From a virus, in the IMG/VR virus record IMGVR_UViG_3300035181_002074, positions 1 to 64,000 of that record: a DNA stretch of 64,000 nt. The stretch is one strand, 5' to 3'. The translations under genes and the position numbers were made by a program. Of this stretch, positions 13,543 to 46,758 are shown piece by piece (position 1 is the stretch's first letter; each line of letters begins with the position of its first letter). The notes under the pieces are model-generated. The model did not search any database. It saw nothing but the letters and a program-made list of their open reading frames with translations, and had not been told where the DNA came from.

Positions 13543-13627
13543 TAAAAAAGATTATGAATATGACAAAGGCTCAGATCCAATACAATCATTATAGCAGTCG
13601 ATATGATAATTAGCACTATAATTGGTG

Positions 13628-13906: not shown

Positions 13907-14138
13907 TTTATCTCCTTCGAATATACGTACTCGATAGTAAACACTTTACCATCCAAATCACTAGACCACCCAGCATCGTAGCCATACCATACACGATACT
14001 TGTAATGCATACCTTTGACGCCGTGGATACCGATAGTATTGGGGCGCCATTGGGCATCAGGGGATTGGTAACAGTGCCCAAAGGAATACTTCGGCAATGT
14101 TGGCTCCGGCCATGATACGAACATTAAGGCTATTAATT

Positions 14139-14375
14139 CTACCATTCCACGTCCAGCCATTGGCCACACCCTGAGATAAAAACTCTGAAACCTTTTTTTC
14201 TTAATTCGCGGCTAATCCGCAGCGCATCCCGTGAAGGGTTCCTAAGATAAACTTGTGTATTTGAAAATCCCAGTTTAGCGAACTTGGTTAATTCTCTACT
14301 AGCACCAACGGTAGTAGTGTATCTTGGCGATAAGCTGTCGGCTAATTTGCGTAATTGTTTTGCTGTAACTTTCAT
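14139..14375 (-). CDS. Hypothetical basic protein, probably leaderless
   Basis: ATG lies 6 nt from the -10 box. Confidence 0.6.
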   Translation of the reverse strand: MKVTAKQLRKLADSLSPRYTTTVGASRELTKFAKLGFSNTQVYLRNPSRDALRISRELRKKGFRVFISGCGQWLDVEW

Positions 14376-14381
14376 ATAATC

Positions 14382-14410
14382 AATATAACACTATTATACA
14401 GTTAAGTCAA
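14382..14410 (-). promoter_or_regulatory. sigma70-type early promoter
   Basis: TTGACT-17 bp-TATATT. Confidence 0.7.
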
Positions 14411-15453
14411 CCTGAATTAAATAGCGCATATATTCGGGGTCATTGATGTCTTTAGACTCATCGAAAATACCATACAATATGCTTCCGACTTTCACTATGT
14501 GGTAATTATTCATGCCATACCTCAATATCAATATAATGGGTATATGGCTCATTACATATTAACCAAAAGCTGGAAACCTTAAGCCAACAATCGGTATAGA
14601 CAGCTTTCTCGATTAAGTAATCTTTCATACTTCCTCCATTAATTCCACCGTGAGCCATAAATGACTGCCATTGTCGATAAACACCCATATGCGTGGAGCA
14701 GTCCCGTCAAATAGAGGCTCCCAGTCGCTGGGTGTAGCTATTATGAGTCTATAACTCTTCGATGATAATGCTATATTGTTCATAACTGAATTCCTTATCC
14801 GCAGTGAGATCGTCTATATAATATGTACAAATATATATATTGCCTTGTTTATCAAAAGAGTGTACTCGGCTGATGTGATAAGAATTCATAATGATATCTC
14901 CACATGAAACAGTAACTCATACGTATCTCGGTCGAAAATAATATAATGCCTTATATCCATCCAAGCATCACTGTGATACATGCCGTATGGTTTATACATA
15001 GACCACCACGCTAAAGTTATGATAGAATGCGTGGGTAGCGTATATGGTGTAATAGATTTGCTCCGTTTGTCCAAAGAAACCTAGACTGCGCGATGAGTAT
15101 ATTTTATATGGTTTCATCATTCCAAGGTCTTTCCATGTAGTATTCTTTATCGCCAAGATCATTTTCAATTGACCAGCACTCTTGAATTCCTTCAAACCAG
15201 TGGTACATGTAATAAAGCTTACCCATAAATGAAGTCTACCCAGTAATGTTTATTTTCTCCGCCGATCAGTATAAACCATGGTCTCTGCGCTTGAAAGTCG
15301 TCATCCCATTGAAAATGAGTGCGAATTGTATAATCAGTCATATGCTATCCGCCACATGTGCTGACCTATTTCACCTTCATGGATATGGAACCATATTAGA
15401 TCTGCTGCACAGTAAATTCTTACGTGCCTATCCATGAAAGTATCATTCTTCAT
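14394..15453 (-). other. Micro-ORF array B (9 members, 37-52 aa)
   Basis: 14394-14513, 14506-14628, 14625-14783, 14749-14889, 14886-14999, 14992-15120, 15104-15226, 15219-15341, 15334-15453; e.g. MNSYHISRV...QYSIIIEEL, MTDYTIRT...KHYWVDFIYG. Confidence 0.78.
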
Positions 15454-18628: not shown

Positions 18629-18657
18629 AGTGTATCACTCTTTTTTTGTTTCGTCAA
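18629..18657 (-). promoter_or_regulatory. sigma70-type early promoter
   Basis: TTGACG-17 bp-TACACT, followed by an AAGGAG RBS. Confidence 0.7.
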
Positions 18658-19523
18658 CCTCTTTTAAAATTGCTATATTGTAGACGTGTGGGTCGAATAA
18701 CGTCGCTTGAAATGGATATTGGGCTTCTTCACCACCATCATCTATTATGTCATAGCTATTAGGCAGGATTATTATCCCGTAATTTCTAATTGGTGTCATT
18801 TAATTGGGCAATCAAAGCATCGGCGAGCCTTACAGCCATGATCGCCTTGCCTTTAGATTCATCGGCATTATTCGTATTATGTCCACCAGCAATAGCAGGA
18901 ACAACTAATCCTTGCATAATCAACGCAGCAAAATATTCTCTCTTGGTTAGGGCATCGCCCATTTGAGATTCTTGGTGGACTTTATCGTTTGGGTTTGTTT
19001 TCATATTTTTCTCCTATTGCTATATTGTAAATTTTTATGGATTTTTCGCCTTCTGGTGTATTAGTAAATGCATACGGGGTACTGGGGTTTCGTAACGTTT
19101 TATCGTCCGTTATTGGATAATAATAAGTTTTACTTACAATCATGATACCATAATTAAACAAAACTTTGAATTTAGTCATAAACCGCCAAGTTATATATCA
19201 CATTAAGCTCTGCCGCGATGCTGTCGTATAATAGTTCATCTATATTACTGAAATTTATTTGGACATGGGGATTCATTCCACCGTCATTCACTATATGAAA
19301 ACCTGCAGAGCGGATTGCAACCGCATAATTGAATGTAACTTTACTCTTCGCCATTTATTATTACCCAATCCCCTAAGAAGGCGATGTTGTATATCTTTGC
19401 TGCTTTGTTGCTCATAGCCTGTCCAAATGATGTATCAGGATTGATACCGTCATCGGTAACCATAAGGTACGGTACTTCACGTCGATGATACATAATAATC
19501 CCGATGTTGAATACAACCTTCAT
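18635..19523 (-). other. Micro-ORF array C: four clear paralogs (NYG...DDG...IYNIA subfamily)
   Basis: 18635-18799, 18982-19179, 19172-19354 and 19341-19523 share (F)N[YI][GA][IV]...[DN]D[GK]...[IV]YN[IL]A; three also share an NP motif. Confidence 0.85.
18786..19004 (-). CDS. Conserved small phage protein (LTKREYFAA...QG...AVRLADALI type)
   Basis: Recognisable motif of a widespread phage hypothetical family; AGGAG RBS. Confidence 0.65.
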   Translation of the reverse strand: MKTNPNDKVHQESQMGDALTKREYFAALIMQGLVVPAIAGGHNTNNADESKGKAIMAVRLADALIAQLNDTN

Positions 19524-19687
19524 GCAGTTACCTGAGCCAACCAATACAATGGAGCCCCAATCCAACCAAATAAAGCCATAGACCAGAATTCATCTGATTT
19601 GCCTGCCACGACATAGTAATACATGTAAGTAAAACATGTGAGATAGTATGATAAATATACGGCACTGGCAATTAAAAAGGTCTTCAC
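19520..19687 (-). CDS. Small two-TM membrane protein (probable GTG start)
   Basis: GTG lies 7 nt downstream of the -10 box at 19695-19700; hydrophobic sequence. Confidence 0.5.
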   Translation of the reverse strand: MKTFLIASAVYLSYYLTCFTYMYYYVVAGKSDEFWSMALFGWIGAPLYWLAQVTA

Positions 19688-19694
19688 TTGGGTT

Positions 19695-19723
19695 AGTGTA
19701 TCATTCATAGACAATAATGTCAA
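19695..19723 (-). promoter_or_regulatory. sigma70-type early promoter
   Basis: TTGACA-17 bp-TACACT. Confidence 0.65.
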
Positions 19724-20218
19724 CCTGTTTTTGAATTGATCTGTGCCGCCCGATATTGTCCAAATCCTCCGACTTAAACCCAGTATAGATTTCCCATTTT
19801 CTACCATATATCGACCGCATCCAAAATACGACTTCTATTCGGTATTTAAACTTCATGGCAATATCCTTATGCTATATACCTTTTGTTCTGTTATTCCTGT
19901 AATCCATTCTGTCAGTGTCGCTATATTACGGGTGAAAATATGGTAGTTACTGTAACGATCCCATCTATACGCCTTTTTGCGAAATACATATATACCATAT
20001 TGGCAAATATTATTATTCATAAATCCTTATAAGCCATTCAGCCTTGCAATATGACAATTCACTTAGATTCGCATGTGGTACTTCTGTGCCCCATCGAGCA
20101 AGGTTCCAGCTACCGCCTTTCCAGTTGGTAATTGCAATAGTAACTAAATGGTTATTCATATGTTATTCGTAATGGTATGTTGGTCGAATAGAAATAGCAT
20201 AACGGTATAAAGGTTCCA

Positions 20219-20437
20219 TTATTCAAAATTCACGGTTAGGTAGTCATTGTATCCATTAGCAACCATTTCCTTAGCAGTAGCCAAGGCAGCTTTACCAGCT
20301 GGGGTGATCATATTCATTTCTTCCAACCATTGGGTCTCAGGTGTAACCAATCTCAAGTGCCCACGGCGTGGAGCAGATAATTCAGGGTTATTGTTAACGA
20401 TCAAAGTAAATTTTGGGGCTGGATTAGTTTGTTTCAT
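20219..20437 (-). CDS. Hypothetical early protein (start MKQTNPAPK)
   Basis: GAGG RBS and own promoter. Confidence 0.7.
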   Translation of the reverse strand: MKQTNPAPKFTLIVNNNPELSAPRRGHLRLVTPETQWLEEMNMITPAGKAALATAKEMVANGYNDYLTVNFE

Positions 20438-20453
20438 AGTGTACCTCATAAAT

Positions 20454-20482
20454 AGAATATCATCCTTTATCCGAAATGTCAA
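20454..20482 (-). promoter_or_regulatory. sigma70-type early promoter
   Basis: TTGACA-17 bp-TATTCT. Confidence 0.75.
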
Positions 20483-20815
20483 CATAAAAATTATATATTT
20501 TTGCTACCATGCTTTGAATAACCACATGCTTGTCGATTCGCGGGTGATATGGATGAGCTGAAACCCAATCCCCTATTAGATAGGTGCCGCTACGCGACCC
20601 AACATGACGTGCGTATCGTTTATTGTGCAAACTTATTTTATACCGCTGCGTTACTTTCATGGGTTAAAGCTCCACCGAGATTCTGTAATACTTAATAAGG
20701 GACATATCTTCTACATCAGCTCCTTTAGCCTCTATATCGAACACCGATTTCCAGCTATCGATCATATACGTAAACCGTTGAATTTTAATGCCGTAGCGCT
20801 GTGTGGTATAAAATA

Positions 20816-21031
20816 TCATTTCGTATCCGTGGTGCAAGCGTCGTCCATAGACGTACTGTTACCTGTAATAGTGTCCGTTACACTATAAGCATACTTACAG
20901 CCATTCACGAAACCGTTGGAACTACCTTTATGGTAAGCACCCCACATTAATCCACCGGTTAAGGCAGCGTCAAGTAAGCCAAGGGTTAAGAAGATATAAA
21001 AGCCTTTTTTGGTAAGAATTGGGTGGTTCAT
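20816..21031 (-). CDS. Small membrane protein, probably leaderless
   Basis: One TM segment; ATG lies 6 nt from the -10 box. Confidence 0.6.
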   Translation of the reverse strand: MNHPILTKKGFYIFLTLGLLDAALTGGLMWGAYHKGSSNGFVNGCKYAYSVTDTITGNSTSMDDACTTDTK

Positions 21032-24535: not shown

Positions 24536-24567
24536 CCTAATATTTTCATTAAGGAATCCCTCACATG
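24536..24567 (+). promoter_or_regulatory. Late promoter motif plus leader/RBS
   Basis: Near-identical to 5065-5097. Confidence 0.75.
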
Positions 24568-27500
24568 GCAGTTAAACGCAGACTGAAGCTCTTCTCAAGT
24601 GCTCGCCTCGACATCCCACATTTAAGATCAACAGAGTCAGGCGTTGCCAGTGACTTTGATAGTGCATTACGTGGACTCGTTACTGGATTAAATCAACCGT
24701 ATGTTATTCGCGGTTTTGATCTCGTTATTCCTAATGCTGCTATCCCTGCAACTTCTTTAGAAATCAAAGTATCTGATTCAGCTGTGCTACATGCAACGGC
24801 TGCTGAAGCTGGAACTATCCTTAGTGTTGCTGCTGGTACAGTAAATGAAATTCTATCACCAACTAATACTAAAGTGTTTGGCGCATTCCAAAACGGTGTA
24901 GCCAATTACGTTTCATTAGCTTATCGTCGTCGCACTGATCCAACTACTGTTGACCAAGTTGCTGGATGGTCTGAGTCACAAAAGATTGAATACCAACGTT
25001 CAGTTCCAACCGGTGATATATTAGAATACCAATTCGTTATCAGTACGTCAGGATTCTCTACTAACTTACCTTTATACATTGTAGGCACGACTTCGACCGG
25101 TGCTGTGCAATACGCTACGAAAGCTGCCCCCAACTTATTCCGCCTTGGACGTGGTGGTGCCGTACCTGATCCATATTATACATTCAATTACCACAATCAA
25201 AACAATAATTCACAATCACCTTCACAACCTCGCAGAGAATGGATTAATAATAGTCCATCATTAACTCCTAACCCAGTTACCGTATCACCGGGCGATCCAA
25301 CTAGCGCATTCCAGTATGGCGATTTCAATATTGCTAATATGAAAGAGTGGATGGATGCTATCATGAGTCGATTCAAGGAATTGACCGGTAGTACGTATTG
25401 GTATTTGGATTCCGCACTATCTGCAGGTTCACCAAATCTTTTCGACACATGGTATGATTCACTTGGTTCAGTAATGACTGGTAGCGGATCTATCTCATAC
25501 AACCTAGTACTTGAAGCAGCTCAACCAACATTTGGTGAGTTCCAATCCTTTTTCACTGATAGCGAAATCCTTGCCGGTGATTCTTATGTAGTTGGCCAGA
25601 CATCCGGTAACAGAGCCAACATTAGCGCGTTCAATGCTAACCAGCTTATCATTAATTCAATGTTGCGCCAAAACTTCATTGCTAATGAAACACTTTACAA
25701 TCGTCGTCTATATAGACCTGATCTAGTTAAGTTTGATCTATACAATACTGCCGATGCATTAGCTGCCAATAAGATTGGTGTGTTACGTCGCAAAGCTAAT
25801 GGATCTGGTACCCCACAATCTATTTCTTCTTGGTCTTATACTCAAATAGGTTCTTTATCTGCTGCTGACTGTACAGCTAACTTTGGTTCAGCTCACGGAT
25901 TTAACGTAGGCGACTATGCATTCTTCAGTGGCTTAGCGTGTACAACTAATCAGCCATCTGGCGTCTACATGATTAAAGAAGTGCCTACCAGTACTTCTTG
26001 TGTATTTTCTGTTTCATATCTACCAACTGGTGCGGCTACCGTATCATCCGCAACGGCTGCATTAGATACTGCAACACATCATCCTTATCTGCCAACATTT
26101 GTAGTTCAATCATGGTCATATGTAGGTACGGCTATTAAGGTACAAGCACTTGGCCATAACTTCTTAACCGGTGACAAGATTACTATCGGTGGATTGGCTT
26201 GTACAACTAACGCACCCAATGGTCGTTTCACTGTAACGGTTAACCCAGATAACTCTATCAACTTTACTGCAACAGCTCCAACTGGTACAGCAACCGTTAG
26301 TTCGGCATTCGTGCAAGCTAATACTGCCGCATTCCAGTTAACTGTATCGGGCACTAATCCAAATAATTATGATGTTATTGATGTGGTGGCTACAGCTGCT
26401 TCTGATACTGATTTCAATTACGTTATTGGTGCAATCTCTTTACCGACTATTCCTGTTGGCACTGGCGCGATTACTTTAGATGGTGTAGTAGCAGTATCTT
26501 CAGTGCTTGACCCAACTATCGTTTCAAGTATTACTTGGAATGGTACAGCGATCGTAGTTAATACTGCTACTCCTCATGGATATGCTAGTATCGCTGGCCC
26601 AACTGATTTCACGATATACGGTAATCAATCTTTGTCCGCATACATCACTACTTACAGTGGCGTATCAATTGTAAACATTAGTTCAAATGTATTCCAGATC
26701 ACCGGCGGCAATGTTGCTAATCACGGTACTTACACTAACGGCGGCAGTGATTTAACTTACGCACGTTACCCAAATAATCCTTACGCTGGTCCTATCCAAT
26801 GGGATAGTGACATGATTATTAAAGGTATCATCGGTGACAAGTACATGCGCATCCCACAAACTGCGACTGCTACTGGAACTCAACTAGCTAACAAATTTAA
26901 TATCAATGGCCTAACTGGTACAGCTTATTTACAAGACGGTGAAGTAGCATACATTATCATGGAGCGTAATAAGCTTCTTGCTAATGGTGCAAGCTATTCA
27001 ACTGCTGGTGGTAGCGCACAAGTTACTGGTTCAACTTCTCCAACATACGTAGGTGGTACTCGCTTACGTGTAGGTGATTTCGTTAAGTGGGAAGATGAAA
27101 GCGAAGCTTCTTGGCTACGTGTATCTAATCAAGGTTACCCTTCATTAAACGAAGGCGATCAATTGCCATCATTAGCTACTAACTTCTATTTAGTGACTGA
27201 CAATGGACAACCGCCTACTAGTTCACAACGTCCAGCTAAAACTGGCCGCATGGTTTACACTAGAGGAACTTATCAAGAAGTTATCGTTAGTAAGCATTGG
27301 CAAGTAACCCAAAGCGCTGACATCTATTGGATCGCTGTACGTCGTGACAATGGTGCATTAAAATCTAAAGTATATCTCAAGGCATTGGAACTAGAACTAG
27401 GCGAAGTTAGACAGATCAATGATAATGCCCCAAGCAATCTATTAACTTATACTGGAGCTGGTAGCGAAGCGGCTATCAATCCAAACTATAGTGTTATTGA

Positions 27501-29118
27501 TCAAACAGGTGCTTACCAAGAATCACAAGTCTTAGCAGTAGGCAGCAATGCAGCTGACAAGGATAACAGAACTAGACAAGTTACATTTGATTCTGCACCT
27601 GAATTAGATTTCCAAGCTGGCGACAAGATCGTTAAGACTGTTGGATTAACTCATTACAGTTATTTAATCAAGCATGTTATCACTTCTCGTACAGTGATCA
27701 TGGCTGATGATATTTCTACATTAGCTGCTGGTGATACGGTAACATATTACAGAGTGAATCATAATATCAACGATTCAGATAATCTTACATTGGCTATCCG
27801 TAAAGAAGATCGTGATCTAGCTAAAGTAAATACTGCTTTAACTCGCCCGATCTATGACGAAACAGTTTACTTGCAAAAGATGAACGTAACTGGATCTGGC
27901 TTCATTAAGTCTGGTTCATACATTTACAAAGGCACACAAGATCAACCGACTGCTTTAGCATGGGTACTCCATGGAACTAGCAATCAAACTGAAACTATCG
28001 AAGGATTCGGTATCAGTATGCCGGGTAGTAAATTTGGCGCATCATCCATTTTAGTGCATATCCTCAGTGGGACATTCTCCCATGGTGATAGTGTTTACCA
28101 AAATGGCGCATCTACTTATACCATCAATAACGTTGGTAACCCAGCTTTCCCAAGCCCAGCGATCTTAGCTGCTAGCAATGTGGAAATCGTATTACCACCA
28201 AACAGACGTACCCAAGTTGTTGGGTCAAGTTATGTGGTATGGCCAACTAACTGTGCATACAAAGCTTCCTTAGATGATAATTTATGTGGTGAAGAACTAT
28301 TAGTTATTGCCAATGATTCTATCCGCCAAGCTAACTTGGATTACTCCGAGACATATGGTGGACCGAAGGGTAAGATTGAAATATCCCGTAACTTACCAAT
28401 CAACACTCGTTTACGTTTCCGTATCTTGCCAGCTTATGGCTCTGCTAATGTTAGCTCATCCAGTTCTACTAGTTTACAATTAGCTTATGACGGTGGCAAT
28501 ATCGTTTCCATCTTATCTGGTCGTCCAATCGATGTCCGCGTAAGTGATAGAACAACTGGTATTGCACTAGACGGTACATTAAGTATTGATGCAGTTTACA
28601 GCGGTAATGTAGTTGGTGGTATCATGCCTAAGACTGATCGCAGTTTCGACATTGGTACTGAAGCACTGAAGGTTAATCAGATTTGGACAGCAATCCAAAA
28701 CATTAAAACTCATACAACTCATCCATCATCTGGTAACACTAAGTTTACCGCTGTGGGTACATCTACTAATAACTCTGCTTACATTATCCCATCATCCAAT
28801 ATTACTTTGGCGCAAGGTGAAGCAATGCAAGTTGTGGTGACTGGTGTGGCTCGCCGTTCAGAAGGTGTTGCGACGCCAACTACTCAAGGGTCTGCGTCCT
28901 TCAGAATAGAAGGTTGCTTTTACCGTGAAACAGCTGGTAGCACCCAAGCTGCTGGGAGTCCATACAATCTGGTTAGTGGTGCTTACGGTGACGGTATAAG
29001 TTACGCCCTTACATTTGGTACTGTAGGTAATGATGTGGTAGCCGTTGCCTTTGGTGAGAGTGCTGCTATTGAGTGGGCGATCAGTGTAGAATATCAAAAA
29101 GTTCGCCTTCCTAGCTAA
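24565..29118 (+). CDS. Large baseplate / tail-fibre attachment structural protein
   Basis: 1517 aa, T/S/G/N-rich; tandem H[GN]F..GD.....GLACTTN.P.G repeats; preceded by the late motif. Confidence 0.6.
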   Translation: MAVKRRLKLFSSARLDIPHLRSTESGVASDFDSALRGLVTGLNQPYVIRGFDLVIPNAAIPATSLEIKVSDSAVLHATAAEAGTILSVAAGTVNEILSPTNTKVFGAFQNGVANYVSLAYRRRTDPTTVDQVAGWSESQKIEYQRSVPTGDILEYQFVISTSGFSTNLPLYIVGTTSTGAVQYATKAAPNLFRLGRGGAVPDPYYTFNYHNQNNNSQSPSQPRREWINNSPSLTPNPVTVSPGDPTSAFQYGDFNIANMKEWMDAIMSRFKELTGSTYWYLDSALSAGSPNLFDTWYDSLGSVMTGSGSISYNLVLEAAQPTFGEFQSFFTDSEILAGDSYVVGQTSGNRANISAFNANQLIINSMLRQNFIANETLYNRRLYRPDLVKFDLYNTADALAANKIGVLRRKANGSGTPQSISSWSYTQIGSLSAADCTANFGSAHGFNVGDYAFFSGLACTTNQPSGVYMIKEVPTSTSCVFSVSYLPTGAATVSSATAALDTATHHPYLPTFVVQSWSYVGTAIKVQALGHNFLTGDKITIGGLACTTNAPNGRFTVTVNPDNSINFTATAPTGTATVSSAFVQANTAAFQLTVSGTNPNNYDVIDVVATAASDTDFNYVIGAISLPTIPVGTGAITLDGVVAVSSVLDPTIVSSITWNGTAIVVNTATPHGYASIAGPTDFTIYGNQSLSAYITTYSGVSIVNISSNVFQITGGNVANHGTYTNGGSDLTYARYPNNPYAGPIQWDSDMIIKGIIGDKYMRIPQTATATGTQLANKFNINGLTGTAYLQDGEVAYIIMERNKLLANGASYSTAGGSAQVTGSTSPTYVGGTRLRVGDFVKWEDESEASWLRVSNQGYPSLNEGDQLPSLATNFYLVTDNGQPPTSSQRPAKTGRMVYTRGTYQEVIVSKHWQVTQSADIYWIAVRRDNGALKSKVYLKALELELGEVRQINDNAPSNLLTYTGAGSEAAINPNYSVIDQTGAYQESQVLAVGSNAADKDNRTRQVTFDSAPELDFQAGDKIVKTVGLTHYSYLIKHVITSRTVIMADDISTLAAGDTVTYYRVNHNINDSDNLTLAIRKEDRDLAKVNTALTRPIYDETVYLQKMNVTGSGFIKSGSYIYKGTQDQPTALAWVLHGTSNQTETIEGFGISMPGSKFGASSILVHILSGTFSHGDSVYQNGASTYTINNVGNPAFPSPAILAASNVEIVLPPNRRTQVVGSSYVVWPTNCAYKASLDDNLCGEELLVIANDSIRQANLDYSETYGGPKGKIEISRNLPINTRLRFRILPAYGSANVSSSSSTSLQLAYDGGNIVSILSGRPIDVRVSDRTTGIALDGTLSIDAVYSGNVVGGIMPKTDRSFDIGTEALKVNQIWTAIQNIKTHTTHPSSGNTKFTAVGTSTNNSAYIIPSSNITLAQGEAMQVVVTGVARRSEGVATPTTQGSASFRIEGCFYRETAGSTQAAGSPYNLVSGAYGDGISYALTFGTVGNDVVAVAFGESAAIEWAISVEYQKVRLPS

Positions 29119-32100
29119 TATTAATATAATAGAGTTTCGTGATTGAGCCATCAAACTCGAATTGAGTTTCTGGGTAATTGATCTGCTGATGTCTCCATTT
29201 CATTACTTTAAATCCCCAGCCCCACATCTTAATACGATACTTGCTATAAGTTACCATTCAATTTGCTCCCCAATATTAATATAGTAAACCTTTCGTGCAG
29301 CCGTGAAGGTATGGAACACGGCATTGATCATATTAGCTTCATTATCATCGTATGCAGTAAAGCGTAATATCAATCCATTTTTACGGATAATTATCCTGTA
29401 CTTATTCATAGCGTATATTCCAAGCTTTGTAGATGTTGTATACAACCATATCTCCAGCGGTTATGTATATGTCTAATCTCCCCCAGTTTGGCATAACAAC
29501 GTCACCACCACGATATTGTATCACTGAATAGCTATTCATAATTCATGATCCACGCTTTCTGGATACTATTTAACTTCATGTCATAGAAGTTTGGTGAATG
29601 GAGCCGAAAACTAAAATGCTTGACCATGTGGTGACCCCATGAGTATTGACACACGTAATAAGATCTAATCATAAGTAAATCCTATATACCACTCTAATTG
29701 GTGCATAAATTGTTGGCTCACCTTCTAGGTGTCTTGGCCATTTCGTAATAAACCAGCAGTGATGTCGCACTACGAGAGAGTATTGCTTAATCATAATTGA
29801 TTACCCATGTGCGTTTTATTTGATATTTTCGCATTCCGTCCTCACCGAAGTAAATGTTCGGGCTAAGCCAGCTATTCACATTGATTAAACCGGAATCAAA
29901 TTCTGCAACGGAATAAGCTCTAATCATTCTAAAACCTCCACCTGTAGGCAACGTTTAGCATATTGATATTCATATAATGCCCTTGCTGGCTGCCAAGCGG
30001 GATTCTTTTCAATCCAACGAGACTCGCCCAAGAATATTAATATTCTGTAAATGCTTAAGTGTATATCTGAATTACCCATAACTTGGTCTCCCTTGGATGC
30101 ATTGGCGTTGGGTCATCTTCCCTGTAATCATAAAGCTTAAACAAAGTGTCGATCCACACAATCGCGTAGTATTGCACATCATGCATGGTGATCATCCTTT
30201 GGGCGAAATGTTATCTCATACAATTTCAACGGGCAACCTTGCAGCAATTGCCATGCAATGTTATCCTTGATCGCCCAGCCATTTGGGTATATCCATACGC
30301 GGTAAAAAATTGGCGTCCTTGTTACCATACTCCCTCTGTACCAATATTGATGTAATACACCTTCACATCGTCACCATACAAGACAAACGCTACCTCCGGC
30401 TGGTTCGAAGTATTAATATCAAACCTGACGATACGTGATGCCCCATTATGATAGCAGATGCGGTATTTCCTGTGAATCATTCCATCACCACCGTGTAAAA
30501 GACTACTTCATCTTTGCGCATATGGCGAACTGGCCTTGGTGTATGAGTCCAAGCACCAATCAGATACCGATTATTATGTATGTAAACACGGTAAAACTTA
30601 ATCTTCATAAGTCACCATCACTGAAAATAACGACATACCAACATAGAAGAAGCTTGGTGGACTCAATAAGCTACTATAACGATAGATACATTGGCCACCA
30701 ACAGGAAGGGGAAAAACACGATATGTTGCTGATTTAGTCATACTAACTCGATTCTCCAGCCCAATCTGTTTCCTCGTCCGCCATCAAGCAAGACTATTAC
30801 ATAAAGACAATTCAGTGAACTGTCGGAATAAGCTGGCTTGTAGATTCTATAATCCTTCATATATAATCTCTACCATAAAAATCGTGTGGATGTGATGCAT
30901 ATTGCGCAAAGTAATTTCTGGGTCATTGTATCCGAAACGAGTTCCACCTCGTTGCATGACAAAATTTCCTCGCCAAAATGGTTCATGACTGCATGCGATT
31001 CGGTATATCATTCAATCACCATCACATTATAGATCTTATTATGCAAGTCATACAAATTGATCGGCAAATTATAATATCCCTGATATTTAAAGATCGTCCA
31101 CCAACCACCTTGCTCGCAGTAAACATCGTCTTGCCTGTTAAATAGTATCACACGGTAATTCTTATACATATTCTATCTCTATCAACCATGCGTTCTCGGC
31201 GTCATCTACGAACCATAATAGATCTTGCGTATATCGGTGCAAATTCTCTGCATCGATGATATACCTTAACCTACTTATGCTCACGTAATCTGGGTAATCC
31301 ACAATCCTAAATATCATAATCCACCATCACATAGTAAGCTTTCTGGACTGGAAATTGCTCCATGAATATTGCTGGCGAGAAGAAATCAGCGAACACGACA
31401 GTATCCCCGCTTTGCCTATAACGAGAGGATACGATTGATACGCTAGCATCAAATAAGGCAACTCGGTAAGCTTGTTTTGGATATGACTTCATAAAATTTT
31501 AACCTCGAAATAGCGGCTAGTGGGGATAACACCTTGTGTAAACAGGCTATAAGTTTTACCAATGCCTTGTGACCCGAAGTCAATTAGCCGGTACCCTTTT
31601 TCTCGTTTGTACTTTTTCGCTTTAAAGATGATGTAATAAAATCTCATCCCAGCCCCCGAATCAAATAAACCTTCTCTGCGTCGGCTTTTAATAAATATTC
31701 TTGTCTAACGTGATAATCATACGACTGATGGATACGCAGTTCATTTGTAATTATGCACCAGTATACAGTAACGTAGCTCTCAGGAACAAAGAAGTCTATC
31801 ATCCGACCACCTCTATGGTAAATATCCTGCGCCCGTGTCCAGATTTTCCACTCAAAATAATCTCAGGGTTAATAAAAAAAGAAGCATACCGTGCAATAGC
31901 AATAGTATATGAGGCGCTCGCGTAGATTAAAATGCGGTAGACTACCCGATTAGGCTTCATAAGATATGTACCGCAATGATTTTGGCTACCTTATAATGTT
32001 TAGAGCCCCAATGAATGGAAATAGCATTCTCCAGTATATCCTCTGATGTATGCAAAACATATTTCCCCGTCGTGAAAGATATAATCCTGAAAGTCTTAAT

Positions 32101-32127
32101 CTGATGGCATTTATACGGTTTAATCAT
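29111..32127 (-). other. Micro-ORF array E (21 consecutive members, 40-61 aa)
   Basis: 29111-29257, 29251-29409, 29402-29539, 29532-29672, 29669-29794, 29787-29927, 29924-30079, 30055-30195, 30179-30328, 30322-30480, 30477-30608, 30598-30741, 30738-30860, 30847-31011, 31008-31169, 31162-31317, 31307-31492, 31489-31647, 31644-31802, 31799-31960, 31957-32127; every ORF overlaps the next. Confidence 0.85.
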
Positions 32128-32314
32128 GCTTATTCAACAGGGAATTCATTTTACCTGTTACGTAAGTATATGAATCAATCACTCCAACTACGTATCCGTA
32201 AACATACCAAAACACGCCCATGAAAGCTAGCTTACTGGCAATAGTCCAATCCGTTTCTTGTAGGAAGGTTAACGTAGCCCATGCACATATCAATGTTATT
32301 ATTATTCTTATCAT
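32120..32314 (-). CDS. Small two-TM membrane protein
   Basis: Hydrophobic MIRIIITLICAWATL...FMGVFWYVYGYVVGVI; start placed at the Met after an AAGGA RBS. Confidence 0.55.
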   Translation of the reverse strand: MIRIIITLICAWATLTFLQETDWTIASKLAFMGVFWYVYGYVVGVIDSYTYVTGKMNSLLNKHD

Positions 32315-32315
32315 A

Positions 32316-32639
32316 TTATTCCTTAGCCTCTTTGGCCGCTTTCTTTGCTGCTTTTTCAAGCTTAGCGTTTTCTTTCTCGATATCTTCTTGGGTTTGGAGT
32401 ACGGATTCGAAACGTTTCACACCGGCTGGCCTAAAAACTGTATTTTTCTCGGAGAAGTTATCCACGATGGACACGAAACGTGGGGTCGCTTCGTCAGTTG
32501 CGAATTTCTTATTACCAAAATACCCACATTGGGTAAATTCCACCGTCAAGGCATCAAGTTCTTCGTACAGAGGTTTTACAGCCTCAAGTTGGTCTTTGAT
32601 CTGAGCGATACGATTAACGATTTCATTTATACGTGACAT
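32316..32639 (-). CDS. Hypothetical coiled-coil early protein
   Basis: 107 aa, AAGGAG RBS, own promoter. Confidence 0.75.
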   Translation of the reverse strand: MSRINEIVNRIAQIKDQLEAVKPLYEELDALTVEFTQCGYFGNKKFATDEATPRFVSIVDNFSEKNTVFRPAGVKRFESVLQTQEDIEKENAKLEKAAKKAAKEAKE

Positions 32640-32651
32640 AATAAGTCTCCT

Positions 32652-35235
32652 TTAATTAGCATACCATTCTTTTTGATCCGAGTCAAGTACTATTTCAAAT
32701 CGTCGATGTTGTTGATGTTTATAGTAATTACACATGACCGTATAATACAGCTCTTCATGGTTATCAACGATTCTGATTTCATTACCATATCTGGGGATGT
32801 TAAAGAATATGCTGTACCTAGTCCTCATATCGGATCTCGATTTGATAGTGTCTTGGATAATCCATAAATGTTTGCCATATTACGTAGAAAGATGAGTTGC
32901 TAGCCCTGATTACATATTTTTCTTTATAACGATATGCGATGGTGTATTCGTGGATTTGTTTCATTCGATTGTTACCACAAATCGTACATCATATGTTGCC
33001 CATCGCTTTAATAAGTCAAGCCAACCATCACTATTATCCCATATATGGACTCCTTGACGATCATCAATATTGATTACATACATTGTAGGTTGATTCATAA
33101 GATATTAATCTGATAATGGTGATCACTGTTATTAAAGAGTTTCCAGATGACGTACATGTCTTCATTATCGTGACCTATCATGTAATTTAAAGTTAATAAA
33201 AGGATGGTGTATTCTTTTGGTGGCTTCATAAAAAATCAATCTGCCACATTTTATCAATCTTTCCTTGGACAAGGTCGATGTGCGCAGCGACCCAGTGTAA
33301 ATAATGTTCCAAGGCACTAATGTTCCAAGGCAATTTAGACCAAGGCGACTTATTATAAATACGATATGACCTAATCATTGATGGTGACCTCATAAATTTT
33401 GGTGCTAACTAAATGCAGAACTATGCTTCTATTAAACTCCACCCCTACTCCAGCTACATTCGTTTTGATGCTGCTCCATCTGGCACTGACTTTGCCACTT
33501 AGTATTGTCCATCTCGCTCCAATGCGTAAATAAATGCGGAATGATCTTTTATTCATACCACTCCACTTGCCAAACGATATACGGCGCGTCAGAAAGCTGC
33601 AAGCTATCTACCATAACATCATGAGACCCGCGAATAAATCCACCCATAAATATGGGGGATATGCTGTAGTATTTATGATTATATGTATGTACGATATGCC
33701 CACGAATGCGAACTGCACGTAGGTCTTGGTCATTCAAGCTCATCGACAATTACCTCCCAGAACTTGCGGTTATGTGAATGTACTTTGAATACAATTTCGG
33801 GGTTCATCCGATATACTCCACTGATTGACCAAATAGCCCAAGACACATTGTTTGTGATAACACGATAAGATCTACTCATACCATTCCACCTGCCAAATTC
33901 TAATCATAGGTTTATATAAGCAATCTGTCAACCTCATATGGCCAGTCCCAGAGAACTTGGTATATATTGACGACATGAAAAACTTGGTTCTCTTGTGTCT
34001 TTTATATTCCCTGATCCTTACTGCCCGTGTGTTTTTACTCATAAGTTATACCATAGATCGTTTGAACATTTTCAGAGCCTATTATAATATTTTTTTCGCG
34101 GAAAACCCCTAGCATGCTGTTGATCATATCATACTCCTTACCCCAAACACCAGATACTTGCACTAATGAATCGCTCACATATATTAAATATCCTTGCTTA
34201 TTCATTAACAATCTCGATTTCGTAGCCTCTATATATCCAATCAGATTTAAGTACGTGCGACTGCCTAATAATAAATGGATCTGGGTACCAGCCTTGGTAT
34301 ATTATTACCATGTTATCCGTAACGCTCATCATGTCGTAAATTCGCAAAACTTTATACATATTTTACTACCCAAATCTTTGTGATGAGTTGGCCGTTAAAA
34401 GTTAAAGGCACATATATATTGTTTAATTCTCTCACCCATAATACACCGATATCGCTGGTACCACTCCATGCAATGATTCCATGACTCTTAGCGCAGTTAT
34501 TAATGATGTATTGGGTAACTGGTTTATTCATAAGTAAACTCGTATAGTTTCCGAAACGTACTACCTAAGTGAATTGCCCTGTAATTTGCTATTGCGTCAA
34601 AATACCAGCCGAATCCCCATTCTCCATTGCGATAGATAATAACACCATGTGGCAACCTGTTACCCATAAGTTACCTCGACAGTGAAAATCTTGGTGTGGC
34701 GGGGTGACATTCTAGTTTCATCACCGAGATAAGCGAATTTACCTTCTTCGTCTAACGCGTAGATTTCGTAAGCACGATTCTTGTATAGGTATATGCGGGT
34801 AGATTTAATCATATCGCACCACATAGATCTTGATTCGATCATTCGCAGCTATGCTAAATACAGAGCCATCATATATATAACTGTGATATATTGTATACTC
34901 ATTACGACTTATCATCACACGATACTCGAAAGATGGTGGAATTTTATTCAAAGGTCACCGTCCATATACACTGAACCGGCAAACCTTTGGAAGTCAAAGG
35001 CTGTTTTATGAACGTATCAACCATGGACGCAGCTATTTCTGGGTATCCATCCCAGTGTTTGGCAGCATAGCCCGTGCCATTTGTATATACCATGTATGAT
35101 TTATTCATATTCTATCCTGTACCCGCGAGTTACATACGTATTAGTGAAATAATTGATGCTATAATAAAACATTCTATTCATTGAATAGTGGCCACTGCTT
35201 TTAATCCATATATCTTGCCAGAATCTAGTGTCCAC
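32652..35235 (-). other. Micro-ORF array F (17 consecutive members, 44-64 aa)
   Basis: 32652-32828, 32818-32964, 32961-33098, 33095-33229, 33226-33378, 33371-33556, 33549-33743, 33730-33879, 33872-34042, 34035-34205, 34198-34359, 34352-34531, 34524-34667, 34660-34812, 34805-34951 (TTG), 34944-35108, 35101-35235 (GTG). Confidence 0.85.
32658..32686 (-). promoter_or_regulatory. sigma70-type early promoter driving array E
   Basis: TTGACT-17 bp-TATGCT with TG extension. Confidence 0.75.
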
Positions 35236-35395
35236 AGCAACCACGGAAAGCCCAACAAAAAGCGACTGCCATCCCAATATTCATGACGGCAGATGGCCAA
35301 TTAGTTGGTGGCTCAGGTTTATCATTTTGGCAGGTATCACATTCGCAGTCACAACCATGGCAATTTTTCACACAATCACATTCTTGTTCACCCAT
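35225..35395 (-). CDS. Cys-rich metallothionein-like peptide (56 aa)
   Basis: MGEQECDCVKNCHGCDCECDTCQNDKPEPPTNWPSAVMNIGMAVAFCWAFRGCCGH; first ORF after the promoter at 35405-35433. Confidence 0.55.
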   Translation of the reverse strand: MGEQECDCVKNCHGCDCECDTCQNDKPEPPTNWPSAVMNIGMAVAFCWAFRGCCGH

Positions 35396-35404
35396 AATCT
35401 CTAA

Positions 35405-35433
35405 ACTATACCACTAAACCAGATCTAAGTCAA
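35405..35433 (-). promoter_or_regulatory. sigma70-type early promoter driving array F
   Basis: TTGACT-17 bp-TATAGT with TG extension. Confidence 0.8.
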
Positions 35434-35434: not shown

Positions 35435-35443
35435 CCTAATATT
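35435..35443 (+). promoter_or_regulatory. Putative late promoter motif CCTAATATT
   Basis: 9 nt upstream of ATG 35453. Confidence 0.7.
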
Positions 35444-35452
35444 TTGCATTAG

Positions 35453-36101: not shown

Positions 36102-36677
36102 ATGAAACAATGTAATACTTGCAATTTAACTAAAAACCTAGATTCTTTTCATAAAAATAAGAATTGCCTTGACGGTCGTCAATATAAGTGTAAACTATGC
36201 GTCAATACATATCTGAAAGCGTATTATTCCCAAAACAAGGAACAAGTAAAAGAAAAAGTTAATAATTACCGTCAAAATAACCCCACTAAGATTTCGGCAA
36301 GGAAAAAGTTATATCGTCAAAACAATATGCAAAAAGTAAAATCTGGTTTGCATAATTGGTATATGAATAATAAATCGAAATCTGCCGAAACTACAAAAGC
36401 ATATAACAAGGCGCATCCAGCACAGGCTTTGGCGCGATGTAATAAAAGACGAGCATCTAGGCTAAATGCTATACCTAGATGGCTAACCAAAGAAGATTTA
36501 TTAAAAATTAAGGAATTTTACATAGAGGCCAAACGACTAGAGTTATTGACTGGGGGTAAATACCATGTAGATCATATTATCCCACTTCAAGGTGAGGCGG
36601 TTCGTGGGCTACATGTACCTTGGAATTTACAAGTTATTCCTGCCTACCAAAATATAATAAAAGGGAACAAGATTTAA
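36102..36677 (+). CDS. HNH homing endonuclease
   Basis: N-terminal CxxC...CxxC; YHVDHIIPLQG..V.GLHVPWNLQVI...N..KGNK; start at ATG 36102. Confidence 0.9.
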   Translation: MKQCNTCNLTKNLDSFHKNKNCLDGRQYKCKLCVNTYLKAYYSQNKEQVKEKVNNYRQNNPTKISARKKLYRQNNMQKVKSGLHNWYMNNKSKSAETTKAYNKAHPAQALARCNKRRASRLNAIPRWLTKEDLLKIKEFYIEAKRLELLTGGKYHVDHIIPLQGEAVRGLHVPWNLQVIPAYQNIIKGNKI

Positions 36678-42111: not shown

Positions 42112-44586
42112 ATGTCAGTAAATAAAATGCACAAAATGGGTGGAATGTTAAAATTAGCGTCGTTCGCATCCGACCCCGCTAGTCCAGAAAACGGAGTGAT
42201 GTACTACAATAGTACGTCTAACTTAGTACGTCAATATATTAACGGTGGATGGGCAAATATTGCTTCTGGTTCAGTTTCCTTAACTGGTCAATCATTAACA
42301 AATGGTGCAATCATTATCGGTAACGGCAGTGGACAATCAGCTGCAGTAACTCCATCAGGTGATGCAACGATCAGTAACACTGGCGTGATTACAATTGGTT
42401 CCAATAAAGTAACCAACGCAATGATGGCTCAGATGGCTGCTAAGACTTTCAAGGGTAATAACTCTGGGTCTACTGCAAATGCTTCTGACTTAACAGCTGC
42501 ACAAGTTACTGCTGAATTAAGCATTATGTCTGGTGATGCTGGATCAGGTGGAACTAAAGGTTTGGTTCCAGCACAAGTTTCCGGTGATGCTACTAAATTC
42601 TTACGCGGTGATGGTACTTTCGCATCTGCTGCAGATACTACTAAGCTTCCATTAGCTGGTGGAACTATGTCTGGCAATATTGCCATGGGCACCAACAAAG
42701 TTACTGGGTTAGCTAATGGTACCGCAGCTTCTCAAGATGCGGCTACTGTTTCTCAAATGGAAACTGCCGATGGCTTCAAAGTTTCTAAGTCTGGTGATAC
42801 TATGTCTGGTAACTTAGCTATGGGCAGTAACAAAGTTACTGGATTAGCTGCAGCTACCAATTCTGGTGATGCTGTAGAATACAGTCAGTTTTCAACTGCT
42901 ACTGGTAATAAATTGCCTCTAGCTGGTGGAACTATGTCTGGTACTATCAACATGGGTAGTAATAAGATTACTTCTTTGACTGATGGTACTTCTGCACAAG
43001 ACGCAGTAAGCAAAACTCAAATGGAAACTGCCGATGGTTTCCGCGTGGCAAAAGCCGGTGACACAATGTCTGGTAACCTTGCTATGGGTACCAATAAAGT
43101 TACTGGTCTCGGTGCTGGTACTGCAGCAACTGATGCTGTAAATAAATCTCAATTAGATGGAATAAGCGCAGGTCTCGTATGGTTAAGTCCAGTTCAAGAT
43201 CCTGACTTAGTGGACGACAGTTTATCTGCTCCTCCAGTTGCTCCAGTTGCTAACACTACTTACTTGGTTAGCGATACAGCTACAGGATTATGGGCTGGCT
43301 TAGAAGGTCGCCTTGTTTATACCGCTGACGGTGGTACTTCATGGGTAGATGTATTAGGTCGTGCGGTTATTGTCGGCGATCGTTTTGGTATCACTATGGA
43401 GCATGGTTCGGGCTCTGAAGGTGGTAACATGGTGGGTAATCATAATAAGATTGCTCAAATTACTACTGCAACTCCGGGCTCTTATGCTTACAGCTACACT
43501 ACTGCTACTACTAATCAAGCGGTATTCGTTAGTGCTACAGGATCTCAACACACTGGTCATCAGTATACTTTCAACGGAACTTCTTGGATCGAGTTCGGTG
43601 GTACAGCAGCAGTTTCTGCAGGTATTGGTTTATCTTACTCAGGTAACATATTAAATGTTAATCTCGGTGCAGGTATTTCTCAATTACCTTCTGATGAAGT
43701 TGGTGTTGACGTACATACGTCTGGCGGATTATTCACTACCGTAGATAATAGTACTTCTAGTACTGTAACTGCCGCACAATTAGCTATTAAACTTGATGGA
43801 TCTACTCTAGGTAAATCATCTTCTGGTATTAAGGTTGCTACTGGTGGAATTTCAAACAACGAAATTGACGCTGCTGCTGCAATTGCTTACAGTAAATTAA
43901 GTTTAGGTACTAGTATCGTGAATGCTGATATCGCTACTGCTGCAAACATTGCTCGCAGTAAATTAGCTTCTGGAACCAACTACGCTTGGGCTACTAATAA
44001 CGGTTCCGGTGTATTGTCTGATGTTGCTGTAACTGCTTCAAGAGCTGTTGCAACTGATTCAAACGGTGCTCCAGTTGCTTCTGCTACTACTGCTACTGAA
44101 CTAGGTTATGTTTCTGGCGTAACTTCTTCCATCCAAACTCAAATCGGTGGAAAAATTGGTAACGTTGTTGAAGATACTACTCCACAGCTTGGTGGCAATT
44201 TAGATCTAAATGGGCATGCAATTGCTTCCCCATTCAAAGTTGGTACTGATACTAACTTCGTTTCTGAATCATACATCCATACCGCTACTTTGACTGCTTC
44301 TCAAACTAATACAGTGCTAAGTAATTTAACCTTTGCTTTTGCAACTACTATGGCTATCGACGTACAATACACTATTAAAGAAGCTACTACGAACAACGTT
44401 CGCGTAGGACATTTACGTGTAGTATGTAACGGTACCGATATTGGTATCAGTGATGATTACGCTGATTCAGCTGACGTTGGCGTGAGCTGGGATGCAGCTA
44501 TCAACGGAGCGGACGTAGAAATCAACTATACTACGACTGCTAACGCAAAAACCTTTAGAGCTTCCGTTAAGTCTTTCCAAGCGTAA
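42112..44586 (+). CDS. Tail fibre protein with GGTMSG...NKVTGL...DA repeats
   Basis: Four roughly 43-aa trimeric-adhesin-like repeats; AAGGAG RBS. Confidence 0.75.
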   Translation: MSVNKMHKMGGMLKLASFASDPASPENGVMYYNSTSNLVRQYINGGWANIASGSVSLTGQSLTNGAIIIGNGSGQSAAVTPSGDATISNTGVITIGSNKVTNAMMAQMAAKTFKGNNSGSTANASDLTAAQVTAELSIMSGDAGSGGTKGLVPAQVSGDATKFLRGDGTFASAADTTKLPLAGGTMSGNIAMGTNKVTGLANGTAASQDAATVSQMETADGFKVSKSGDTMSGNLAMGSNKVTGLAAATNSGDAVEYSQFSTATGNKLPLAGGTMSGTINMGSNKITSLTDGTSAQDAVSKTQMETADGFRVAKAGDTMSGNLAMGTNKVTGLGAGTAATDAVNKSQLDGISAGLVWLSPVQDPDLVDDSLSAPPVAPVANTTYLVSDTATGLWAGLEGRLVYTADGGTSWVDVLGRAVIVGDRFGITMEHGSGSEGGNMVGNHNKIAQITTATPGSYAYSYTTATTNQAVFVSATGSQHTGHQYTFNGTSWIEFGGTAAVSAGIGLSYSGNILNVNLGAGISQLPSDEVGVDVHTSGGLFTTVDNSTSSTVTAAQLAIKLDGSTLGKSSSGIKVATGGISNNEIDAAAAIAYSKLSLGTSIVNADIATAANIARSKLASGTNYAWATNNGSGVLSDVAVTASRAVATDSNGAPVASATTATELGYVSGVTSSIQTQIGGKIGNVVEDTTPQLGGNLDLNGHAIASPFKVGTDTNFVSESYIHTATLTASQTNTVLSNLTFAFATTMAIDVQYTIKEATTNNVRVGHLRVVCNGTDIGISDDYADSADVGVSWDAAINGADVEINYTTTANAKTFRASVKSFQA
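43057..43800 (+). repeat. Copy 1 of a 744-bp module duplicated at 45457-46200
   Basis: Colinear with offset 2400; includes an identical 41-nt stretch at 43681-43721 and 46081-46121. Confidence 0.9.
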
Positions 44587-44667: not shown

Positions 44668-46758
44668 ATGGCAAACAATCTATTTAACATCAACAAAGGT
44701 TTATCCCTTAAACCTCAAGCAACTGCACCGGCATCCCCTTCAGCTGGTGACACGTATTACGACTCAACATCCAACACATTAAAAACATGGAACGGTACCG
44801 CTTGGGTAGGCGGCGGCGGTGGTGGGCTTGCTAATGTAGTTGACGATACTTCTCCTCAACTTGGCGGTGAATTAGACGTTAATGGTAATAATATTTTACT
44901 TGGCGTGTCTTCAACAATTAAATCTGGAGCTAGTGATTCAAATATTTCATTCCCATCTTTGGGTTCTGTTAGACTAGAGGCTTCTGTAGCTGGTGACTCC
45001 CTTGTGCTAGGTTCTAACTTTGATGTTCAGATGGTTTCTGGTAATATCACTATGAGCAGCGGTGGAATCGTACAAATTGGTACTGGTTCAAATAAATTTT
45101 CATCCGATTCATCCAAAGCTGTAATTACAAATGGACTTACAAACAAAGTTGAGGTTAATGGTTCAGATATTATTTTAGACGCTGGTGCAGGTAACATTAC
45201 TGCTGCTAGTAATATTGCCATGAGTAGCAATAAGATTACCGGTTTAGCAGCTGGTGGAGTTGCTGGCGATGCTGTAGAATATAATCAATTTGATACAGGG
45301 CTCGGAAACAAGTTAAGTTTATCTGGCGGAACTATGTCTGGCTCTATCAATATGGGCAGCTTAACTATTCAGCAGATGGCTGATGGTGTTGGCTCTACTG
45401 ATGCTGCCACGGTTGGTCAGATGAATACCGCTCTTGGTAATAAAGTTTCCATATCTGGTGACACAATGTCGGGCAACTTAGCTATGGGTAGCAACAAAGT
45501 TACTGGCTTAGCTAATGGTACCTCAGCAAATGACGCTGTAAATAAATCACAATTAGATGGAATCGCTGTAGGGCTTGTATGGTTAAGTCCGGTTAATGAT
45601 CCAGACTTAGTTGATGATAGTTTATCTACCCCTCCGGGTTCTCCAGTAGCTAATACCACATATTTAATCGGCGCTTCGCCTACCGGTTTATGGGCTGGTT
45701 TAGCCGGACATATTGTTTATACCGCTGATGCGGGCGCTTCATGGGTAGACGTTTTAGGTAGAGCAGTGATCGTAGGAGATCGTTTCGGTATCACTATGGA
45801 ACACGGATCTGGTTCTGAAGGTGGCAATATGGCTACCAATCATAACAAGATTGCTCAAATTACTGTTGCTACACCGGGTTCTTATGCATATACATTTACA
45901 ACTCCAGCAACTAATCAAGCTGTTTTCGTAAATGCTAACATCTCGCAACATGCTGGACATCAGTACAGTTACGATGGTACATCATGGATTGAGTTCGGTG
46001 GAGCTGCTGCTGTATCAGCAGGCATTGGATTATCATATTCTGGGAATGTCTTAAATGTGAATCTCGGTGCTGGTATTGCTCAATTACCTTCTGATGAAGT
46101 TGGTGTTGACGTACATACGTCAGGTGGATTATTTACCACTATAGACAACAGTACTTCTAGTACGGCTACCGCTGCACAGTTAGCAATTTTATTAGATGGA
46201 ACTACTCTAACTAAATCCGCTTCTGGCTTGAGGGTGACTGGTGCAACAGCTGCTGAAATCGGTTATCTTTCTGGAGTAACTTCTTCCATTCAAACGCAAT
46301 TTACCGGTAAACTTTCTACAACCGCTAATGCCGTAGCTAATACTAACTTAGCCCAAATGGCTGCTAATACCTTCAAAGGTAATAATACTGGGTCTACAGC
46401 TAATGCTGCTGACTTAACGGTTGCTCAAGGTAAAGCAATGTTTGGTGTGACTGGTGAAACTGATGCAGGTAACTCTGGTGCAACTAAGACTTTGGACTTC
46501 GTCTTAACCCCAGCTAATAAAGTTACCATGACTGCTTCATGTACTTTTACTTACACTAATATGGTAGCCGGTGGTGCTTACGCGATTCGTATTGTTCAAG
46601 GTGGATCAGGTTCATACACTGTTACTTGGCCTGCTGGAACTAAATGGGCTGGTGGTACTCCTCCAACCTTGACTACTACTGTTGGTGGTATTGATTTAAT
46701 TTCAGTTTACTATGATGGAACTAACTACTACTCTAGTGCTGCTATGGCGTTTGCATAA
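44668..46758 (+). CDS. Tail fibre protein, paralog of 42112-44586
   Basis: Same repeats and core; different C-terminal domain (IVQGGSGSYTVTWPAGTKWAGGTPPTLTT..G.IDLIS.YYDGTNYY). Confidence 0.75.
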   Translation: MANNLFNINKGLSLKPQATAPASPSAGDTYYDSTSNTLKTWNGTAWVGGGGGGLANVVDDTSPQLGGELDVNGNNILLGVSSTIKSGASDSNISFPSLGSVRLEASVAGDSLVLGSNFDVQMVSGNITMSSGGIVQIGTGSNKFSSDSSKAVITNGLTNKVEVNGSDIILDAGAGNITAASNIAMSSNKITGLAAGGVAGDAVEYNQFDTGLGNKLSLSGGTMSGSINMGSLTIQQMADGVGSTDAATVGQMNTALGNKVSISGDTMSGNLAMGSNKVTGLANGTSANDAVNKSQLDGIAVGLVWLSPVNDPDLVDDSLSTPPGSPVANTTYLIGASPTGLWAGLAGHIVYTADAGASWVDVLGRAVIVGDRFGITMEHGSGSEGGNMATNHNKIAQITVATPGSYAYTFTTPATNQAVFVNANISQHAGHQYSYDGTSWIEFGGAAAVSAGIGLSYSGNVLNVNLGAGIAQLPSDEVGVDVHTSGGLFTTIDNSTSSTATAAQLAILLDGTTLTKSASGLRVTGATAAEIGYLSGVTSSIQTQFTGKLSTTANAVANTNLAQMAANTFKGNNTGSTANAADLTVAQGKAMFGVTGETDAGNSGATKTLDFVLTPANKVTMTASCTFTYTNMVAGGAYAIRIVQGGSGSYTVTWPAGTKWAGGTPPTLTTTVGGIDLISVYYDGTNYYSSAAMAFA
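45457..46200 (+). repeat. Copy 2 of the duplicated tail-fibre module
   Basis: See 43057-43800. Confidence 0.9.

Follow-up and report, generated by a model that had tools for sequence, protein, structure and literature searches.

Conserved ends and divergent middles in a tandem array of 38 overlapping microprotein genes of a phage

A tandem array of 38 overlapping genes encoding proteins of 40-64 residues occupies a single minus-strand block in the window, which covers the initial 64 kb of a phage record in IMG/VR with a length of 160.6 kb and an estimated completeness of 99%. An initial annotation had singled out three sets of these genes with near-identical termini and replaced middles, and had suggested that the arrays grow by duplication and that the core evolves faster than the ends through diversifying selection or a targeted replacement mechanism. 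The flagged pairs are probably old tandem paralogs whose ends constitute a scaffold under purifying selection and whose middle is weakly constrained or diversifying. What stands out is the array as such, in which an orphan microprotein is present in at least 38 coupled copies. About 4% of the genome (6.2 of 160.6 kb, and more with the other arrays) consists of one orphan family without a homolog outside this phage in the libraries searched, and very large expansions of microprotein paralogs thus exist in phages. The features of the array and of its upstream region are the following:

29111-35277, minus strand: whole array of 38 overlapping genes for proteins of 40-64 amino acids, apparently of one divergent family (from ORF tiling, overlaps, tiling statistics, and family profile)
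32120-32639, minus strand: two unrelated genes inside the array, encoding a hydrophobic protein of 79 amino acids and a charged protein of 107 amino acids
35225-35395, minus strand: ORF for a Cys-rich protein of 56 amino acids (CDC...CHGCDCECDTC) that ends in a hydrophobic tail, nearest gene downstream of the promoter-like site and unrelated to the array family
35405-35433, minus strand: sigma-70-like promoter, TTGACT-17-TATAGT with a TG extension, at the head of the array (by consensus match only)
35435-35444, plus strand: CCTAATATTT motif, opposite in direction to the array promoter

The array is located between two plus-strand tail-fiber-like genes, one at 24565-29118 and one from 35453 onward. 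Minus-strand ORFs cover 99.8% of it and form a single chain of 40 coupled ORFs; chain length is 3 for the plus strand and never exceeds 4 in 200 shuffles. The array ORFs are real genes. Each of them has a low codon-usage score and gene finders may skip them, which would fit a region that is non-coding or the remnant of a decayed larger gene. This explanation is hardly credible, however, in view of the length of the chain, the conservation of the peptides despite synonymous change, the existence of a family profile, and the ATG starts that regularly sit on upstream stop codons. Of the two unrelated genes, the one for 79 residues probably encodes a membrane protein; the 107-residue gene has its own AAGGAG site, which is the sole canonical one, and its junction is the sole one without an overlap.

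Relatedness across the array was assessed with a leave-one-out profile, for which each tested member was ranked in a set of 316 sequences consisting of this member and 315 off-frame decoys. Nineteen of the 38 members rank first and 27 are found among the top 5, a recovery suggesting that the array is essentially one very divergent family; about one third of the members are missed individually. At the N-terminus, M is followed by [KR], and conserved columns of Y (29/35), R (23/36), and I/V (35/37) lead into an N/G-rich turn. Two aromatic positions are conserved internally (28/35, as [YWF]-x-[IV], and 32/34), and a proline column is present in roughly half of the members. The C-terminal columns [KR] (27/37), [YWF] (35/37), and I/V (36/38) make up the pattern [KR]-h-[YWF]-x-[IV]-x-h. 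The truly variable part of the family is a segment of differing length ahead of this last block. The ends noticed in the flagged pairs thus appear to be the most conserved blocks of the family, and the middle seems to hold two weaker conserved positions as well. Compared with the large proteins of the phage, the array proteins are enriched in W (3.1-fold) and Y (2.8-fold) as well as in R, H, and I, and A, T, and G are underrepresented in them; pI values extend from 4.2 to 11.0. Iteration of the profile recruited five further members, located in other arrays of small genes (at 11.6, 18.6, 19.9, 58.5, and 113.2 kb of the genome), and no decoys, and by eye many more ORFs in these arrays share the family plan.

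Minus-strand arrays of ORFs for 40-70 amino acids with a similar design, i.e. an N-terminal Y-x-[IV] and a C-terminal aromatic-x-I-x-h-Y-E, are located at 11477-15341 and 18635-21031. Few of their ORFs are significant by the family profile, and the latter array includes a distinct trio at 18982-19523 (FNYG...IYNIA).

The coordinates and sequences of the three flagged sets check out. Their members are the following genes:

33549-33743, minus strand: microprotein gene, 64 amino acids, first copy of pair 1, with RAVRIR and WQVEWYE in common with 33872-34042
33872-34042, minus strand: microprotein gene, 56 amino acids, second copy of pair 1 (BLASTP match with the first copy)
29251-29409, minus strand: microprotein gene, 52 amino acids, first copy of pair 2, with KYRI ... 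KVYYINIG ... W
30322-30480, minus strand: microprotein gene, 52 amino acids, second copy of pair 2, with KYRI ... KVYYINIG ... W (also modeled with AlphaFold2)
29111-29257, minus strand: microprotein gene, 48 amino acids, third member of the pair 2 subfamily and last gene of the array (Smith-Waterman comparison with 30322-30480)
32818-32964, minus strand: microprotein gene, 48 amino acids, first copy of pair 3 (pairwise and codon alignment)
33095-33229, minus strand: microprotein gene, 44 amino acids, second copy of pair 3 (pairwise and codon alignment)

For 33549-33743, an ATG at 33743 is favored as start over a TTG at 33749, with GGAGGT located 8 nt upstream of the ATG. The two copies of pair 1 are identical at 22 of 61 residues (36%; BLASTP, E 2e-7), and pairwise protein comparison gave 20 of 50 for pair 2 (E 2e-7) and 19 of 44 for pair 3 (E 2e-9). 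Full-length Smith-Waterman scores of the paralog sets, compared with 2000 shuffles, correspond to z = 10.4, 11.5, 11.8, and 13.7; the third pair 2 relative, 29111-29257, reaches a score of 67 against 30322-30480 (z 11.8). With pair z values of 10-14 these genes are paralogs, and the proposed growth of the arrays by duplication is supported. Only 10 of the 703 possible array pairs pass the 99.9th percentile of the shuffled scores. The flagged pairs are among those 10 and appear to be the least-diverged members of the family. The copies of pairs 1 and 3 are each spaced by two genes, for which duplication in two-gene units was considered, but the genes in between show no significant similarity (z 1.7 and -0.9).

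When the end blocks are cut off, the middles alone give z = -0.3 for pair 1 and 1.8, 2.7, and 2.6 for the other comparisons in the shuffle test. The description of exact ends around an unalignable middle is literally true of pair 1, with RAVRIR and WQVEWYE. It is roughly true of pair 2, in which KYRI, KVYYINIG, and W are the common blocks, and less so of pair 3, in which identity is distributed over four blocks including the internal YVIW. The claim that the core evolves faster than the ends therefore holds in the sense of a weaker constraint on the middle, but not in the sense of a targeted mechanism, as the codons of the conserved blocks indicate.

RAVRIR is encoded by CGT GCA GTT CGC ATT CGT in one copy of pair 1 and by CGG GCA GTA AGG ATC AGG in the other, and three of the five degenerate codons of WQVEWYE differ as well. 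Over all pairs, with M and W excluded, the same codon is used at 23 of 71 identical residues, compared with 30.4 expected for random codons at saturation. DNA identity between paired genes is 43-52%. Synonymous sites within the identical blocks are saturated, and it is the peptide, not the DNA or RNA, that is kept. From this saturation it follows that the duplications are old, that there was no recent gene conversion, and that conservation acts on the peptide. At such saturation of dS, a segment under weak constraint would no longer be expected to align, and no special mechanism is needed. The middle may be under relaxed constraint or under diversifying selection.

Targeted diversification, in which DGR-like mutagenic retrohoming or cassette replacement rewrites the middles and the ends serve as anchors, would account for the appearance of pair 1, whose fixed ends and unalignable middle look like a variable region between flanks. 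The genome offers no machinery for such a process, since the whole 160.6-kb record, at its estimated completeness, contains no RVT_1 (PF00078) reverse transcriptase candidate, and the control genomes were matched. A template repeat is likewise absent from the array, in which no repeat exceeds 27 nt and the longest direct repeat is one of 27 nt at 74% identity. Adenine-biased substitution, which had been suggested as a check, is not observed either: A makes up 0.25-0.32 of the mismatched bases in the pairs, which is no excess over its share of 0.30-0.40 in the composition. Moreover, the flanks are synonymously saturated, and at the nucleotide identity of the pairs the ends are unfit as recombination anchors. 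Lacking the reverse transcriptase, the template repeat, and adenine-only differences, the array does not belong to the DGRs, and targeted rewriting of the middles is very improbable. For the method, the array is a clear case of conserved ends with a replaced middle that are explained by age and uneven constraint and not by a mutagenic system.

A different objection concerns the ends, whose identity could be an artefact of translational coupling if the start, stop, and Shine-Dalgarno site of neighboring genes are embedded in them. The overlap is 8 nt long (TATGANTAA type) at 14 junctions, 4 nt (ATGA) at 12, and 7, 11, or 14 nt at a few others. In an ATGA overlap the upstream gene ends in an xxA codon (L, E, G, V) and the second codon of the downstream gene begins with A (K, N, I, R, T); in a TATGANTAA overlap the upstream gene ends in Y-[E/D/V/G] and the downstream gene begins with M-[N/S/I/Y/G]-[K/R/N/S]. 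The first two to three residues (M-[N/I/S/K]-[K/R]) and the last two to three (Y-E, Y-D, x-E, x-L) are fully accounted for by these overlaps, including part of the M-x-K start and of the Y-E end, and in about half of the genes a Shine-Dalgarno motif (GGAG, GAGG, or GGTG) is encoded in the last five codons. To this extent the coupling has left an imprint on the termini. The overlaps fix just these residues, however, and RAVRIR, KYRI, and EYTI are located beyond every overlap and KVYYINIG is located upstream of the Shine-Dalgarno site. Since the flagged blocks are mostly outside of the overlaps and Shine-Dalgarno sites and vary synonymously, ribosome binding and overlap do not fully explain the ends. 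The remaining half of the junctions, which have no Shine-Dalgarno motif, still hold the strand pattern, conserved aromatic positions are also found internally, and conservation persists once the overlap and Shine-Dalgarno nucleotides are set aside. Even inside the overlap the protein sequence matters, because position -2 is Y in 10 of 13 8-nt junctions with an ATG start, although codons for H, N, and D would serve the xAT equally well. Coupling as the full cause of the terminal identity is accordingly quite unlikely, and the termini in the array illustrate the combined effect of stop/start overlap and protein structure.

The reading of the flagged genes as old paralogs with a conserved scaffold is the most probable one and can be outlined as follows. 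An old, lineage-specific tandem expansion of one beta-rich and aromatic-rich family of 40-64 residues would have given rise to the array, and the flagged pairs would be its least-diverged survivors. The 38 copies in the minus-strand block are read serially via the 4-nt (ATGA) or 8-nt (TATGANTAA) stop/start overlaps. The putative scaffold would begin with an N-terminal strand at Y-R-[IV] and an N/G turn, continue with two internal aromatics, and close with the C-terminal strand [KR]-h-[YWF]-x-[IV]-x-h-x-E; all of this would be held by purifying selection on the protein. Ahead of the last strand, a segment of variable length that is weakly constrained or diversifying would have diverged past recognition. 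Gene overlap acts as a second layer that sets only the first and last two to three residues.

Transcription probably starts from the host-type promoter at 35433-35405, which would make the array genes early genes. The plus strand of the window carries five exact copies of CCTAATATTT (2423, 5065, 21343, 24536, and 35435), and in each case a plus-strand structural gene starts 9-74 nt further downstream. None of these copies precedes the array, and matches with one mismatch are at chance level. The motif is consistent with a phage-specific late promoter, as the initial annotation had proposed. The sigma-70-like promoter at the head of the array, together with the restriction of CCTAATATTT to plus-strand structural genes, suggests that the array is one long coupled operon which is transcribed early by the host polymerase. 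Promoter-like sites number 27, compared with 27.3 in shuffles, and terminator-like sites number 8, compared with 4.4 +/- 2.2.

Two members of the array were modeled with AlphaFold2 from paralog alignments, which gave low-confidence models. For 33872-34042 (pLDDT 69.5), strands are predicted at residues 5-15, 18-25, and 48-55, and residues 32-38 have a pLDDT below 50. For 30322-30480 (pLDDT 62), strands are predicted at residues 5-11, 14-19, and 38-45. Both models place an N-terminal beta-hairpin on the Y-R-[IV] block and a C-terminal strand on the last block, with coil or low confidence in the middle. The matching ends may thus represent a predicted beta-strand scaffold of the family. A Foldseek search against the PDB gave no match at E 0.001 or better, and in the ESM Atlas the shape search returned generic beta fragments only and the feature search nothing usable. 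Sequence searches against Pfam, PHROGs, PADLOC, and PDB sequences gave no match below E 0.01, and no family recurred among the 38 members.

The likeliest function would be that of a set of small host-directed accessory proteins, i.e. binders or inhibitors for takeover or anti-defense. The ends might instead be interaction or address elements. They could be edge strands by which the co-translated paralogs stack into a hetero-oligomeric beta assembly, comparable to a repeat protein divided among several genes, or they could serve as a tag for sorting, as the capsid-targeting sequence does in T4 internal proteins. Coupled translation would yield near-equimolar products as is typical of complex subunits, and each protein would be as large as one beta-propeller blade. 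Direct support for such a role is lacking, however, and the conserved positions are not confined to the ends. The wide pI range would be odd for equivalent subunits. The orientation of the array, opposite to that of the late structural genes, and the lack of the motif that precedes those genes speak against virion cargo. Interaction or address elements are therefore unlikely.

If the ends are scaffold, the roughly 40 or more scaffolded microproteins could be regarded as a germline library, in which one tiny beta scaffold carries about 40 loops, is produced in bulk from one coupled early transcript, offers a broad repertoire of binders against host defense or takeover targets, and is built anew from different families in related phages. 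Such a library is conceivable, if rather doubtful; if true, it would represent a previously undescribed phage strategy for breadth in counter-defense. Provided that individual members recognize different host targets, the array would lend itself to the search for minimal binding scaffolds and new anti-defense proteins.

The nearest cultivated phage is Myxococcus phage Mx1, to which the DnaE-type polymerase and the N-terminus of the fiber are 33-37% identical; this low identity suggests that the phage lineage is unstudied. The corresponding place in Mx1 contains no such array. Homologs of the array were not found by megablast against phages. In a word-indexed search of 5.8 billion proteins the only match was one of the array's own proteins, and a profile search of 1.84 billion representatives returned one own array protein and one match to a repeat protein that was judged spurious. 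Scans of IMG/VR and metagenomes identified one relative, G001, and two distant contigs without arrays. The tail-collar fiber was tried as a synteny probe and rejected, since it gave promiscuous domain matches only.

For proteins of more than 300 amino acids, 78% are common to this phage and G001, with a mean identity of 55%; just 8 of 107 ORFs of 70 amino acids or fewer are shared. G001 has no homologs of the array genes, nor of the 79- and 107-residue genes inside the array. The genes on both sides of the array are conserved in G001, with identities of 63% for the fiber and 55% for the ortholog of the gene at 35453, and the slot of 11.4 kb between them is filled with different minus-strand small genes (L083 1-11400). 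Many of these encode W/Y-rich microproteins with M-x-N-Y-x-W ... F-x-F, mixed with larger genes that include an ORF for 111 amino acids and one for a Cys-rich protein of 198 amino acids. The profile of the G001 microproteins is unrelated to the array profile (hhalign probability 0.1, as well as by cross-searches). The slot appears to turn over rapidly and behaves like a hyperplastic region.

In T4-like phages, hyperplastic regions are blocks of small and mostly early genes that vary with the lineage and are located between conserved core modules (PMC4122927). This phage and G001 likewise have a block of variable small genes between conserved ones; as in T4-type regions, the small genes are flanked by conserved structural genes of opposite direction and differ completely in content between relatives. 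In contrast, the genes of T4 regions are unrelated to one another and have individual promoter/stem-loop cassettes, whereas the 38 copies considered here belong to one paralogous family with fused stop/start junctions. PeSL-like promoter/terminator cassettes were not seen between array genes, which overlap without intergenic space.

The array members are adjacent and detectably homologous, as in tandem paralogous multigene families. The MGF110 and MGF360 genes of ASFV and the accordion expansions of poxviruses are tandem lineage-specific multigene families that encode host-directed accessory proteins. They likewise represent the tandem expansion of one family by duplication and divergence, but their proteins are much larger and are encoded in separate transcription units of eukaryotic viruses, whereas the bacteriophage array encodes translationally coupled proteins of 40-64 residues. 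The DGRs of phages (BPP-1 Mtd type) also combine a conserved scaffold with a variable segment. Unlike these, the array has no reverse transcriptase, template repeat, or adenine-specific changes, and its diversity is distributed over germline paralogs. Literature searches turned up no comparable array.

Several further observations concern other genes of the phage. Between two tail-fiber genes on the plus strand, the gene at 36102-36677 is HNH/endonuclease VII-like (phrog_1035, E 3e-25). In G001, the orthologs of its neighbors abut directly and no homolog of this gene was found; it looks like the insertion of a free-standing homing endonuclease. Off-frame shadow ORFs of the adjacent plus-strand structural genes 42112-44586 and 44668-46758 match each other with up to 84% identity over 37 amino acids, which suggests that the two genes are probably tandem paralogs. 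Outside of the window, at positions 112577-113020 of the genome, the plus strand carries an ORF for 147 amino acids that consists largely of A(N/H)LSGA(D/H)LRG pentapeptide-type repeats and adjoins another small-gene array.
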